DNA of 64,000 nucleotides from Candidatus Omnitrophota bacterium (GTDB lineage Bacteria > Omnitrophota > Gorgyraeia > Gygaellales > Profunditerraquicolaceae). The DNA lies in contig JAPLLW010000012.1 in assembly GCA_026387355.1 (NCBI GenBank), forward strand, positions 62,612 to 126,611. Direction: 5' to 3'. Positions 12,771 to 56,628 of the stretch are shown here, one piece after another (positions within the stretch are counted from its first letter, which is position 1; each line of letters begins with the position of its first letter). A program made the translations under genes and the position numbers. The notes under the pieces were generated by a model. The model was not told the origin of the DNA. It worked only from the letters and a program-made list of their open reading frames with translations, and made no database searches.

Positions 12771-14787
12771 TAAAATCTTATTTATAACATTAAGTAATAT
12801 CGGTGATGTAGTATTGACTTTGCCGGTCCTAGATTTCCTGCGTCAGAATTTTCCCAATGCTTCGATTAGCGTAATTTGCGGCGTTAGGCCAAAAGAGCTG
12901 TTTGTTAATAGCCCGTACATCAATAAGCTTATTGTCTACGATAAGTATGCTCACCTTGCGCAGAAGCTAGAATTATTTAATAATCTAAGAAGAGAAAATT
13001 TTGATTTGATAGTGGATTTACGTAACTCCTTTCTGGGAGCGATTTTGCCAACTAGGTTTAGGACTTCCCCATTCCTAATGATACCTAGGTATATACAACA
13101 TATGAAAGATAGGCATCTTTATAGAGTCAAGAGTTTACGGTTAGGGAATGAATTAGCTAAGCCCGTGGATAAAACTTTTAATATCGCTCGTGCCGATGAG
13201 GAGTTTATTAAAAAGATATTGCAAGAAAATAATATACGTGAAGACGATAGATTGGTAGTAGTTTCTGCCGGAGCCAGGAGTGGTAGCAAGAAATGGCCCA
13301 GGGAAAGATTTGTGCAATTAATTTTTAAGTTAGTAAATGAATTATCTGTGAAAATAATTCTGGTGGGGGATAAAGGAGATGTTGCGTTAAGCCAGTCTAT
13401 TGCTAAGGAGTTAAAAAGTCAAGTCCTGGACTTAAGCGGCAGAACAAACTTAGGTGCATTAGCTGCGCTTATAAAGAAATCTAACCTTTTAATATGTAAT
13501 GATAGTGCAGTAATGCATATTGCTAGCTATTTTGATATTCCGGTTGTAGCTATATTTGGAATTACCGATGATGAAAAATACGCCCCATGGTCACAAGATT
13601 CTTCTGTGGTAAAGAAAGAGATCTTCTGCAGACCGTGCGAAAAGGCTGTATGCAGATTTGGGACTTTAGAATGTCTATCCCGGGTGCAGGTTGACGATGT
13701 CTTTAGAGAGGTAAAAGACAGATTAGAGAAAAAAGTTATAAGTAAAATCCCGCAAGATCTTAAGCGTATATTAATTGTACGTACTGATAGAATCGGAGAT
13801 GTGCTTTTATCTACTCCTGTAATTAAGGCGATTAGAGAGAGATATCCAAATGCTTTTCTTGCGATGATGGTTTCTGCGTATGCCAGGGAGATTATCGAAG
13901 GCAATCCTTATTTAGACCAGGTGATTATTTATGATAAAGACACAAAGCATAAGACTTGGATAAGTTCAATTAAGTTTGCCAAAGATCTTAATAAAAAGAA
14001 GTTTGATCTAGCGCTAGTCTTACATCCGACTAACCGCGTGCATTTAATTACTTTCCTCGCTGGGGTTCCCAGGAGGATAGGGTTAAACCGGAAGTTAGGG
14101 TTTTTGCTTACTAGTAAGTCAACGCATACCAAACAATTCGGGGAAAAGCATGAGTTAGAATATAACCTTGGTTTATTAAATTTTCTAGGGATTAAAGCAG
14201 AAGATAAAAGATTGTATATGCCGATTAAAGAAGAATCTGAAAAGAAGATCGAAGAGATGTTTCAGTTTCAATGTTTATGGTCGAAAGATAAATTATTAGC
14301 AATTCATCCGGCTGCCAGCTGTCCTTCTAAGATTTGGCCGGTAGAACGTTTTGCTGAATTAGCCGAAAAATTAGCGCAAAAATACGGGTTTAAAGTTTTA
14401 ATTGTCGGCGCCCCAAATGAAATGGGGCTTGCCGAAGATTTAATTAAGCGCATACATATACCGGTGATTAATTTCGTAGGTAAGACATCGATTAGTCAAT
14501 TAGCCAGTTTATTAAAAAGATGTACACTTTTTATTTCAAATGATTCAGGCCCGGTGCATATTGCATCAGCCGTAGGTACGCCGGTAATCTCAATTTTCGG
14601 AAGGAATCAGGCAGGCTTGAGTCCTAAGCGTTGGGGGCCAGTGGGCCCTAAAGATAAATTCTTGCATAAAGAGGTTGGGTGCATTAAGTGTTTGGCTCAT
14701 AATTGCAAGAAGGAATTCGCCTGTCTTAAGGCGATAAGCGTTGAGGATGTGGTTGAAGCGGCTAGTGTAATTATTAATCAACATTAG
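12763..14787 (+). CDS. Tandem double GT9 heptosyltransferase-like protein (two complete GT9 domains in one polypeptide)
   Basis: Domain 1 has 'ILFITLSNIGDVVLTLPVLDFLRQNFP' and 'ICNDSAVMHIASYFDIPVVAIFG'. Domain 2 (from ~aa 335) has 'ILIVRTDRIGDVLLSTPVIKAIRERYP' and 'ISNDSGPVHIASAVGTPVISIFG'. Confidence 0.8.
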   Translation: MVNKILFITLSNIGDVVLTLPVLDFLRQNFPNASISVICGVRPKELFVNSPYINKLIVYDKYAHLAQKLELFNNLRRENFDLIVDLRNSFLGAILPTRFRTSPFLMIPRYIQHMKDRHLYRVKSLRLGNELAKPVDKTFNIARADEEFIKKILQENNIREDDRLVVVSAGARSGSKKWPRERFVQLIFKLVNELSVKIILVGDKGDVALSQSIAKELKSQVLDLSGRTNLGALAALIKKSNLLICNDSAVMHIASYFDIPVVAIFGITDDEKYAPWSQDSSVVKKEIFCRPCEKAVCRFGTLECLSRVQVDDVFREVKDRLEKKVISKIPQDLKRILIVRTDRIGDVLLSTPVIKAIRERYPNAFLAMMVSAYAREIIEGNPYLDQVIIYDKDTKHKTWISSIKFAKDLNKKKFDLALVLHPTNRVHLITFLAGVPRRIGLNRKLGFLLTSKSTHTKQFGEKHELEYNLGLLNFLGIKAEDKRLYMPIKEESEKKIEEMFQFQCLWSKDKLLAIHPAASCPSKIWPVERFAELAEKLAQKYGFKVLIVGAPNEMGLAEDLIKRIHIPVINFVGKTSISQLASLLKRCTLFISNDSGPVHIASAVGTPVISIFGRNQAGLSPKRWGPVGPKDKFLHKEVGCIKCLAHNCKKEFACLKAISVEDVVEAASVIINQH

Positions 14788-14937
14788 CGTCTCACCTTGT
14801 CTTGTTTCTCGCAGGGACGCTTGTTTTGCCCTAGCGTGGCAAAACTAAGCTCGGGTCGGCTGCGTCGCTCTCTGACACTAAGGTGACGGAACCATGCCCG
14901 CTCCTTGCCGACACGCCCTGCTCGAAATCAAGTCAAG
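14788..14937 (+). repeat. GC-rich ~150-bp intergenic repeat element, copy A (MITE-like, or a structured RNA), with imperfect terminal inverted repeats
   Basis: It is ~85% identical to 50766-50914. The left end 'CGTCTCACCTTGTCTTGTTTCTCGCAGG' and the right end 'CCTGCTCGAAATCAAGTCAAG' form an imperfect inverted repeat. An internal hairpin reads GTTTTGCC-ctagcgt-GGCAAAAC. It is sharply GC-rich in an AT-rich genome and starts 1 nt after the stop codon. Confidence 0.6.
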
Positions 14938-14999
14938 TTGAGGCGCATGAAATATCTAGTTGATTTAACAGTAAATTATGTTAAAATTATAGCTTCGCC

Positions 15000-31290: not shown

Positions 31291-31326
31291 TTTAGGCTTT
31301 ATTAAAAGAACAGCCTAAAGTTCTTT

Positions 31327-31351
31327 AAAAGGGATCACATCCCTTTTTTTA
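31327..31351 (+). terminator. Rho-independent terminator after the coiled-coil ORF
   Basis: The stem AAAAGGGAT / ATCCCTTTT with a cac loop is followed by a T-run. Confidence 0.5.
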
Positions 31352-50755: not shown

Positions 50756-50765
50756 AATATATTTA

Positions 50766-50914
50766 GCGTCTGTCTTGTCTTGTTTCTCGCAGGGACGCTT
50801 GTTTTGCCCCAGCGTGGCAAAACTGCGCTCGGGTCGGCTGCGTCGCTCGTCCGCGTTTCACTCGGACACCGTGCCCGCTCCTTGCCGACACGCCCTGCTC
50901 GAAATCAAGCCAAG
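50766..50914 (+). repeat. GC-rich ~150-bp intergenic repeat element, copy B (paralogue of 14788-14937)
   Basis: About 85% identical to copy A. The left end 'GCGTCTGTCTTGTCTTGTTTCTCGCAGG' and right end 'CCTGCTCGAAATCAAGCCAAG' form an imperfect inverted repeat. It has the same internal GTTTTGCC/GGCAAAAC hairpin and begins ~10 nt after the queA stop. Confidence 0.6.
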
Positions 50915-50956
50915 CCATTCGCTAAGCTTAGGCCATATATAAATAATTAAGGTTTA

Positions 50957-51038
50957 AGCGGGTGACGCGGCGACAGGTCCCCTACTTTTCGAGGCGAATA
51001 GCCGAGAACAAGTAGGGTGGCGACGCGGCAGGACCCGC
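50957..51038 (+). repeat. Palindromic GC-rich segment carrying two divergent copies of the 'GTGACAGGACCCG' module flanking an inner CCTACTT/AAGTAGG stem
   Basis: 'AGCGGGTGACGCGGCGACAGGTCCCC' and 'AGGGTGGCGACGCGGCAGGACCCGC' both resemble the module at 48002-48027. The segment abuts, and may overlap, the tgt start. Confidence 0.4.
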
Positions 51039-51056
51039 TTGAAATTAAGAATAAAT

Positions 51057-55593: not shown

Positions 55594-55600
55594 TATTTAA

Positions 55601-55736
55601 TCCGTTCTTTTCTCGTTTAATTATTTTACGGGTCCTGTCACGGGGCGCTTCTTGCGCTAAGATGCGCTTCGAAGCATCCCCGTGCCACCCGTAAAAAGTA
55701 TAATGTGTACCTGCGAGAAACAAGACAAGGCAGACG
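55601..55736 (+). repeat. GC-rich repeat element, copy C: a long imperfect hairpin (55623-55699) bounded by a degenerate left end and a near-perfect inverted copy of the A/B left TIR at its right end
   Basis: The right end 'CCTGCGAGAAACAAGACAAGGCAGACG' (55710-55736) is the reverse complement of the copy B left end 'CGTCTGTCTTGTCTTGTTTCTCGCAGG' with 1 mismatch. The left end 'TCCGTTCTTTTCTCG' resembles the same TIR. The core hairpin is TTTACGGGT...CACGGGG...GATGC-GCTTCGAAGC-ATC...CCCCGTG...ACCCGTAAA, and it contains the reverse of the GTGACAGGACCCG module. Confidence 0.5.
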
Positions 55737-55749
55737 ATAAATTTATTGG

Positions 55750-56628
55750 TTGAAAAGAATGACCTTCAAAGAGAAAATCCAGGCAAATAAGTTTTTAGTT
55801 ACTTCTGAAATCGGCCCGCCAAAAGGAATTGAATTCAGCCATCTTTTAGAGGATGCAGAATTAATCCGTACCCGCGTAGATGCGATTAATGTTACTGACC
55901 TGCAGAGCTCAGTGATGCGGCTGGGGTCTTTAGCTGTCTGCAGTATTTTAAAACAGAACGGCTTTGAGCCGATATTTCAGATGACCTGCCGCGATAGGAA
56001 CCGCCTGGCCTTACAGTCGGATCTGCTATCAGCAGCTGCTTTTGGAATTGAAAATGTTTTAATGCTTACCGGTGACCATACTACCTTAGGCGACCATCCT
56101 GACGCAAAACCAGTTTTTGATTTAGATTCAGTGCAATTGCTGCAGGTAGCTAAAAAACTCCAGGAAGGCGCTGATATGAAAGGCAATAAGTTAACCGGGG
56201 CTAGCCCTAAGTTTTGCTTGGGCGCGGTTGTTAATCCCGGAGCTGATCCAATTGAGCCGCAGATCATAAAGATGGAGAAAAAGATTGCTGCGGGCGCAGA
56301 GTTCTTTCAGACCCAGGCAGTATATGATCTAAAAATCTTCGAGAATTTCTTGAGTAAGACCAGGCATCTTAAAACTAAGATCATGGCCGGGATTGTTTTA
56401 CTTAAATCCGCAGGAATGGCTAAATATATGAATAAGAATGTTGCGGGGGTATTTGTTCCGGATAATCTGATTAAAGAGATGGAAGAGACAAAAGATAAGA
56501 CAGCGCAGTCAATTGAGATTGCCTCGCGCCTGATCAACGAATTAAAGCCTATGTGTGACGGAATACATATTATGCCTATTGGCTGGGATAAGTTAGTCCC
56601 GCGTGTTTTAGACGCTTCAAGTTTATGA
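55750..56628 (+). CDS. metF: 5,10-methylenetetrahydrofolate reductase
   Basis: 'FLVTSEIGPPKG', 'NVLMLTGD' and the 292-aa size. The start may be a TTG at 55750 or the ATG at 55759. Confidence 0.85.
   Translation: MKRMTFKEKIQANKFLVTSEIGPPKGIEFSHLLEDAELIRTRVDAINVTDLQSSVMRLGSLAVCSILKQNGFEPIFQMTCRDRNRLALQSDLLSAAAFGIENVLMLTGDHTTLGDHPDAKPVFDLDSVQLLQVAKKLQEGADMKGNKLTGASPKFCLGAVVNPGADPIEPQIIKMEKKIAAGAEFFQTQAVYDLKIFENFLSKTRHLKTKIMAGIVLLKSAGMAKYMNKNVAGVFVPDNLIKEMEETKDKTAQSIEIASRLINELKPMCDGIHIMPIGWDKLVPRVLDASSL

Follow-up and report, generated by a model that had tools for sequence, protein, structure and literature searches.

A probable relic of a convergent pair of hairpin-forming intergenic repeats between folD and metF in an Omnitrophota genome

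The folD-metF junction

In a 64,000-nt stretch of Candidatus Omnitrophota DNA (contig JAPLLW010000012.1; the whole of this 64-kb stretch is called the window below), a spacer of 156 nt separates folD from metF, the two genes that an earlier note on this DNA had given as neighbours of an element that it named copy C. Both identifications were borne out: the MetF product carries PF02219, the ORF upstream of the spacer is 81.5% identical to an ORF of a related locus (L052), and the same gene in L057 carries PF00763/PF02882. The cluster also holds FTCD_C, CODH (Prismane) and ferredoxin genes. The spacer contains pieces of a repeat family that we call F1, arranged as follows.

55594 to 55623, plus strand: spacer that follows the folD stop codon, including 55601-55615, which had been claimed as a degenerate terminus
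55624 to 55697, plus strand: complete 74-nt mini-element with the termini TTTTACGGGTCCTGTC and GCCACCCGTAAAAA
55699 to 55704, plus strand: TATAAT hexamer in the gap that separates the mini-element from the solo arm, 55 nt ahead of the metF start codon (ATG at 55759)
55705 to 55743, minus strand: solo left arm of an inverted F1 copy, containing the 27-mer at 55710-55736

The earlier note read copy C as a single element of MITE architecture, bounded by a degenerate terminus at 55601-55615 and an inverted one at 55710-55736. The right-hand sequence was as described: the 27-mer CCTGCGAGAAACAAGACAAGGCAGACG corresponds, on the opposite strand and with one mismatch, to the left end of copy B, a full F1 copy elsewhere in the window, and at up to 3 mismatches the window contains only one other match to it (50767-50793, minus strand, 1 mismatch; 0.00 expected, 100 shuffles). 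The inverted similarity to B extends over 41 nt at 90% (50756-50796 versus 55707-55747), and that of the arm to copy A over 24 nt at 96%. The solo arm matches model positions 5-39 of the family HMM (E = 9.5e-6), is identical to the arm of L003 at 32/32 positions and ends just after CGCAGG, where the outer stem joins the core of the repeat. The left-hand terminus, however, did not hold up. The best local alignment of the 30-nt spacer consisted of the 7-mer TTTCTCG only, its terminus score was equalled or beaten by 4.5% of random 30-nt stretches of the window and by 13% of shuffles, and 55601-55615 gave no match to the family HMM or covariance model. Positions 55611-55639 align to the flank and the left end of the element at the folD-metF junction of L052, the part from 55611 to 55623 being homologous to the flank; as judged by eye, a GTTCTT-like motif is present at the corresponding flank in L062 and L104.

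The GC-rich hairpin noted inside C is real, since 55594-55749 folds as RNA with -52.9 kcal/mol (z = -4.8) and the 82-nt hairpin core folds as DNA with z = -5.9 (plus strand) and -7.9 (minus strand). It is not, however, the interior of an element bounded by 55601-55615 and 55710-55736, but a complete mini-element with termini of its own, identical to those of the full forward copy at the same junction of L052. Its interior is a hairpin that retains the CTTC-TTG / CTTC-GAAG internal-loop signature of the family, and a close relative with almost the same interior lies upstream of metF in L104. The 27-mer, taken for the right end of C, belongs to a separate truncated inverted copy with an intact counterpart in L052 and L071. 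The TATAAT hexamer has no -35 partner and the promoter scan made no promoter call there; no terminator-like site was found at C in the scan.

Comparison of the junction across relatives revealed both empty and filled states:

L056 and L063: empty junction, folD to metF 7 nt and 4 nt, respectively
L052 (= L057, L058): folD stop codon, CGTTCTTTT flank, full forward copy, 256-aa orphan ORF, full reverse copy, metF
L071: forward mini-element, ORFs, full reverse copy, metF
L104: forward mini-element with an interior almost as in C, ORF, another repeat, decayed solo reverse arm, metF
L062: 505-nt mosaic of fragments, the last of which is the same reverse arm
Window: relic consisting of a forward mini-element and a solo reverse left arm

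The earlier note had called for such a comparison of filled and empty sites; at the distances between these species it establishes the two states and leaves their exact boundaries blurred. All MetF pairs are 83-90% identical, a range that does not single out the filled junctions as a clade. The genome with the empty junction L056 carries F1 elsewhere (L025). In L052, L071, L104, L062 and the window, the reverse left arm has its outer end, counted by eye, ~20-25 nt before the start of metF, and given this constant position in all filled cases we took the arm as inherited rather than independently inserted. At the same position and with the same ends, the junction holds either a full copy (L052) or mini-elements (window, L104, L071), and the cargo differs between L052, L071 and L104. 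The 256-aa ORF of L052 had no match in the other loci, and the same cargo was never found at two sites. Just before this ORF (L052 ~5180-5140, minus strand), the sequence GGAGGCCGCGTTCGAATCGCGCCTCGTCA resembles a T-arm and 3' end of a tRNA, perhaps left behind by an integrative element; ARAGORN called no tRNA at this sequence and no tRNA or tmRNA at the cargo junctions. Two Logan contigs (L054 and L055) whose MetF is identical to that of the window both begin inside the arm (TGCGAGAAACAAG...), 47 nt before metF; being two independent assemblies, they show that the F1 repeat breaks short-read assemblies.

Because the termini of the mini-element, its upstream flank and the reverse arm all match the junctions of relatives, the mini-element and the solo arm of the window appear to be the outer ends of a former convergent pair that has lost its middle. 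In part of the Omnitrophota, the folD-metF junction would carry such a pair, with a forward copy and a reverse copy facing each other across the cargo, and in the window the cargo and the remainder of the reverse copy would have been deleted. We thus regard C as probably what decay has left of two such facing repeats and not a working unit. Today it is likely to do no more than form a stable hairpin in the spacer, or in the transcript, between folD and metF.

The F1 repeat family

The window contains two full F1 copies and three derivatives. Those outside the folD-metF junction are the following.

14782 to 14950, plus strand: copy A, full F1, between a family-9 glycosyltransferase gene and the next gene
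50760 to 50927, plus strand: copy B, full F1, between queA and tgt
50953 to 51044, minus strand: mini-element D4, 25 nt after B, forming a convergent pair with it

Both pairs of the window, B with D4 and the two pieces of C, are convergent. A and B are direct copies, 96% identical when helix P4 and the outermost stem are excluded, and score 155.9 bits and 175.7 bits (E = 2e-44), respectively, with the covariance model; B folds with -68.7 kcal/mol (z = -4.6). The termini of D4, TTTAAGCGGGTGAC ... GGCAGGACCCGCTT, match those of the mini-elements of the family, and its DNA folds with z = -6.5 and -3.6. The junction of A is occupied in L045 in the same orientation and in L001 and L017 in the opposite one. 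An ordinary rho-independent terminator, AAAAGGGATCACATCCCTTTTTTT, lies at 31318-31350 of the window, indicating that this genome uses canonical terminators; F1 has a T-run at its 5' side and an A-run at its 3' side, the reverse of the terminator arrangement.

As the earlier note proposed, the arm belongs to a repeat family present in both orientations. In a collection of species-representative genomes, an exact 20-mer from the arm, CTTGTCTTGTTTCTCGCAGG, was found in 53 stretches of 26 assemblies (at most 7 per assembly), a count that excludes the window's own genome, whose MetF bears the annotation Candidatus Omnitrophica. Nearly all of these records are labelled Candidatus Omnitrophota and a few are labelled uncultured Planctomycetales or simply bacterium. 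Full copies measure ~170 nt and mini derivatives 75-90 nt. A covariance model built from 45 full copies aligned over ~170 nt recovered 63 full copies at 93-186 bits, the reverse strand reaching merely 20-40 bits, and the family HMM gave 86 matches in the loci. At the gathering level, Rfam 15 gave no match in the window and only tRNAs in 18 related loci; at permissive E-values, B and C gave chance-level matches only. Searches of viral contigs with the 20-mer and of plasmids with B and D4 (blastn) were without a match, so that nothing points to an origin in a phage or plasmid. The literature searches turned up nothing on Omnitrophota repeats and no description of F1. The family is thus common to at least 26 Omnitrophota species and has neither an Rfam entry nor a description that we could find.

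Copies of F1 recur in several species at the same sites adjoining housekeeping operons: after leuS, after rpsI, and near purD/purF and polX. The recurrent neighbours, which from their sequences we take to be leuS, rplM/rpsI, purD/purF, polX and fabF, are syntenic housekeeping genes, indicating that many copies occupy the same junctions in several species. The recurrent ORF families beside the copies proved to be these syntenic genes. Among copies whose neighbouring genes run in the same direction, 16 are co-oriented with the genes and 15 anti-oriented. Conservation stops abruptly 12-13 nt outside the arm, and upstream of the copies no sigma-70 promoter signal is conserved at a fixed position.

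The F1 fold comprises four helices. P1, the long outer stem, joins the left arm (..GCGTCTGCCTTGTCTTGTTTCTCGCAGGG) to the right arm (CCCTGCTCGAAAtCAAGCCAAGCCATCCGC..) and has fixed mismatches, a bulge and a 2x2 internal loop; by our own count, the left arm agrees with the reverse complement of the right arm at ~27/34 consensus positions (~79%), and the arms pair in 93-99% of the alignment cells. P2 is a hairpin with the conserved loop CCAGCGTG, P3 a further helix and P4 a variable hairpin. The most conserved part of the repeat is not its outermost ends, which vary with compensation, but the unpaired junction motifs TCGCTC and AACCnTGCCCGCTC. In the model-fitted alignment A3 (63 copies), 95.1% of the cells were paired versus 80.2% in shuffles, and 33 of the 41 pairs had changed on both sides. 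Cells changed on both sides numbered 320 versus 77 in shuffles and 50-70 in slid controls, and the covariation score was 0.372 versus 0.114 in shuffles and at most 0.089 in slid controls. A MAFFT alignment gave the same picture (93.7% of cells paired versus 82.7% in shuffles; 188 cells changed on both sides versus 58; covariation score 0.281 versus 0.100). The statement that the terminus was hard to explain as an RNA gene was thus too strong. G-U pairs and A-C mismatches are balanced (34 versus 32), and both DNA strands of the mini-elements fold. Since hairpin modules seem to be swapped between copies, part of the covariation may reflect the exchange of whole hairpins. Module swapping or templated correction of palindromes could also yield it, so that the covariation does not discriminate between a DNA-level and an RNA-level role. 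The 3' strand of P4 is ~65-70% complementary to the invariant GCCCGCT and might pair with it instead; this alternative helix shows no covariation. ORFs do cross F1 copies; the possibility that F1 is coding sequence was rejected in view of length variation that is not in multiples of three and of the compensatory changes in the stems.

Derivatives of F1 at the DNA level are varied. In L030 and L051 copies lack the core; L025 has a left arm folded back perfectly on itself; arms stand alone or in tandem in L004, L010, L016 and L017, with breaks often just after CGCAGG(G); and in L006 a copy is interrupted by an insertion. A core-deleted form of ~78 nt with an identical deletion junction occurs at 10 sites in two related genomes. 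When metagenome contigs were scanned for both termini at a separation of 30-60 nt, for which we estimate about five matches by chance, 57 sites with 49 distinct interiors were found, nearly all of the interiors being hairpins that keep the P1 internal-loop signature TTTC-TCG / CTC-GAAA. The claim that one terminus bounds different cores therefore stands for the family, as these 57 mini-elements show, and fails for C itself. Modules P2, P3 and P4 were found in shuffled combinations: the orthologous copies L041 982-1142 and L024 7463-7631, from two related genomes, differ in their type of P4, a type that non-orthologous copies share, and the partner copies carry the missing type, so that whole hairpin modules seem to be exchanged between copies.

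Pairs of copies within 3 kb are mostly convergent, with right arms facing (16 pairs, versus 3 divergent and 7 tandem). The members of convergent pairs either lie 23-42 nt apart or bracket 0.7-1.6 kb (L012, L014, L016, L035, L052), and by Pfam the cargo between F1 pairs consists of orphan, N_methyl pilin-like and ORF6N genes. Pilin-like genes next to or between F1 copies (L012 1520-1951, L022 2622-3065, L033 4918-5403, L035 2273-2770) are diverged and carry the N-terminal methylation motif FTLIELIVVIIIVGILAA; three of them are at different loci of JAQUME01. That such a gene and the element form a recently duplicated unit was considered and rejected: only the N-terminal region is common and the paralogues are old.

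The short target-site duplications that a transposing element might leave were absent, as no direct duplication was found in the flanks of 51 full copies and 57 mini-elements. The bases just outside the termini are mutual inverted complements and specific to the copy (GTCAA/TTGAC, AATTAA/TTAATT, TTGGGTCTAG/CTAGACCCAA; examples are L015 3340-3514, L046 2051-2225, L104, L097, L081 and L111), as would be expected if the targets were palindromic or if the palindrome were extended by templating. No transposase or recombinase was recognised among the ORFs near the elements that were examined, a minority of the ~370 ORFs of L001-L053 (Pfam for cargo ORFs, inspection for recurrent clusters), and no integrase was noticed among them. 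Within 2-14 kb around each F1 copy no RAYT (Y1/HUH) gene was seen.

Two further repeat families were noticed in the same loci, neither with an Rfam match. F3 consists of imperfect palindromes of ~180 nt (ATATTTTGCCGAGGG...GTTAAGCGTGC ... GCACGCGAACAATATCCC...), often directly beside F1 (L046 ~2046-1865, minus strand; L001, L030, L009, L053, L093, L050, L043, L008, L090, L064, L083). F4 consists of long-stem elements of ~225 nt that have AATGAACCTGGTATAAATTTCGCAGCGAATGTCGATTTTAGCC at one end and its reverse complement at the opposite one and occur in both orientations (L038 ~7005-6780, minus strand; L039, L036, L028, L104, L059, L062, L043); it is present at the metF junction of L062 and L104.

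Known repeats and competing readings

F1 behaves like known intergenic palindromic repeats and is set apart from them by its size, its branched conserved core, its conservation across a phylum, its convergent pairing and its modular mini-elements. Like the REP, BIME and REPIN sequences of Proteobacteria, which are associated with RAYT, it is found between genes as imperfect, GC-rich palindromes, in numerous copies of either orientation, with inverted neighbours and mosaics, vertical inheritance, long retention and compensatory changes in the stems, and recognition of REPs and REPINs is thought to depend on the hairpin, as we propose for F1. REPs of 20-40 nt and REPINs of ~70-110 nt are, however, shorter than F1 (~170 nt; units of 75-175 nt), which has a three-helix core and junction motifs. 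Some REP superfamilies have a CGTC tag (PMC3733652); many left ends of F1 read GCGTCTG, and others read GCGGCTG, ACGGGTC or GGCGGGT, so that CGTC is not invariant, and it is partly paired. REPs are for the most part found downstream of genes and between convergent ones (PMC3733652), whereas F1 is seldom found between convergent genes (2 of 43 copies). Unlike in REP/REPIN systems, neither RAYT nor another Y1 transposase was seen near F1.

ERIC sequences (IRU) of enterobacteria and vibrios are imperfect palindromes of 120-170 nt that lie in transcribed intergenic regions in both orientations; their sequence is conserved across genera and they have size variants due to internal insertions and deletions. 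To our knowledge, no agent that mobilises them has been described. F1 resembles ERIC in length, palindromy, occurrence in both orientations and size variants, but the sequences are unrelated, ERIC forms one long hairpin where F1 has a branched core, and F1 shows marked convergent pairing and many mini-elements with only the termini in common. In Neisseria, Correia elements, NIME/dRS3 repeats and minimal mobile elements form repeat mosaics between conserved genes and flank variable genes, and the junctions, like those of F1, hold different whole genes in each strain or species. Correia elements carry inverted repeats of 26 bp and a duplicated TA; no direct duplication accompanies F1, which also differs in phylum, sequence and fold. 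Integron attC sites share with F1 a structure that is conserved over sequence, with bulged stems, fixed extrahelical positions, a terminal structure that ranges from a few nucleotides to a branched domain, and adjoining orphan ORFs. F1 has no R''/R' boxes (RYYYAAC / GTTRRRY), its termini being TTTAGCG... / ...CGCTAAA; we noticed no intI and no one-directional cassette array, and F1 elements lie inside housekeeping operons.

On balance we lean towards F1 as a mosaic repeat of the REP/BIME/REPIN kind, probably working through DNA hairpins and moved or homogenised in trans. Its inverted repeat, imperfect and 34 bp long, forms a long bulged stem that bears either a short loop or the three-helix core, and this hairpin in DNA, we infer, is the active form. 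Copies would spread or be homogenised as DNA, through trans-mobilisation by a putative enzyme and/or gene conversion between copies, persist at the same intergenic sites across species and mark junctions where accessory genes are gained and lost. The derivatives and the site polymorphism point to a repeat that is or was mobile; no enzyme and no recent insertion were seen. Besides the lack of direct duplications, and of a transposase or recombinase among the ORFs examined, two observations weigh against this reading: conservation over 26 species at syntenic housekeeping sites is unusual for selfish MITEs, and conserved unpaired junctions with covarying helices are the signature expected of a functional folded RNA or a protein ligand.

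A classical MITE, with C as its third copy, the stretches 55601-55615 and 55710-55736 as its terminal inverted repeats and a DDE transposase recognising the common terminus, would account for the 27-mer as an inverted copy of the left arm of the family, for the pairing of part of 55606-55616 with the arm in the RNA fold and for the imperfect 34-bp, ~79% identical inverted repeat. For C, this reading is contradicted by the orthologous junctions and essentially excluded: the left terminus is no better than chance, the hairpin has complete termini and occurs in orthologues and relatives as a stand-alone unit, and the arm is what remains of a distinct reverse copy, which is intact in L052 and L071. 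The family as a whole does have the terminal inverted repeats and the filled and empty sites of a MITE, but neither a direct duplication nor a parent insertion sequence with a transposase was found, the latter among the ORFs examined beside the 86 HMM matches, and its outermost ends vary with compensation where fixed ends are expected. The idea of a mobile repeat in the earlier note was therefore broadly right and the architecture that it proposed for C wrong; a DDE-driven MITE at this site is highly improbable. F1 might act mainly as a structured RNA, either a multi-copy small RNA or a cis element of mRNA in processing, stability or termination, with the DNA variants as by-products and C as a decayed copy whose hairpin between the two cistrons is still stable. 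The four helices with compensatory changes in both alignments, the highly conserved motifs TCGCTC, AACCnTGCCCGCTC and CCAGCGTG in junctions and loop, and the shared sites beside housekeeping operons all speak for this. A single defined transcribed strand, however, was not found to accompany the covarying fold: orientation to genes is unbiased, there is neither a conserved upstream promoter nor a terminator, with the T-run on the 5' side and the A-run on the 3' side, and G-U pairs are not in excess over A-C. Solo arms, foldbacks, nested copies and shuffled modules are also common, and no Rfam family matches, so that we hold a primary RNA role to be unlikely, though still a live alternative.

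The convergent pairs can also be viewed as docking sites at which a dedicated recombinase inserts and removes orphan genes, in the manner of integron attC sites, Acinetobacter dif modules or Neisseria minimal mobile elements. Their close spacing or their orphan, pilin-like and ORF6N cargo would fit, as would the different cargo at one junction in L052, L071 and L104 and the stems that keep bulges and mismatches while their tops vary, as in attC sites. The ORFs examined near the copies, however, include no recombinase gene, there is no R-box-like AAC/GTT signature and no array of ORFs and sites in one orientation, and the same cargo never recurs at a second site, the 256-aa ORF being without a match in other loci and the pilin paralogues being old. 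We consider such docking rather improbable. The same low probability applies, in our estimate, to the broader proposal that F1 and its mini-elements are recognition modules, consisting of a bulged DNA or RNA stem and GCTC junctions, for a putative dedicated protein of Omnitrophota, with convergent pairs docking the exchange of cassettes.

F1 in the biology of the Omnitrophota

Taken alone, C is an ordinary relic, and the family behind it is of greater interest. F1 is large (75-175 nt), highly conserved and found in at least 26 species of an uncultivated phylum, and it merits further study for its covariation-backed four-helix fold, its modular termini around many kinds of interior and its convergent pairing. 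A marker specific to the phylum could be built on it, and the long persistence of palindromic repeats with no transposase in sight could be studied in it. Convergent F1 pairs mark junctions with turnover of accessory genes, one of them within the Wood-Ljungdahl gene cluster. If the docking of cassettes were true, F1 would represent an integron-like mechanism with a new kind of site, which places orphan and pilin-like genes between housekeeping genes.
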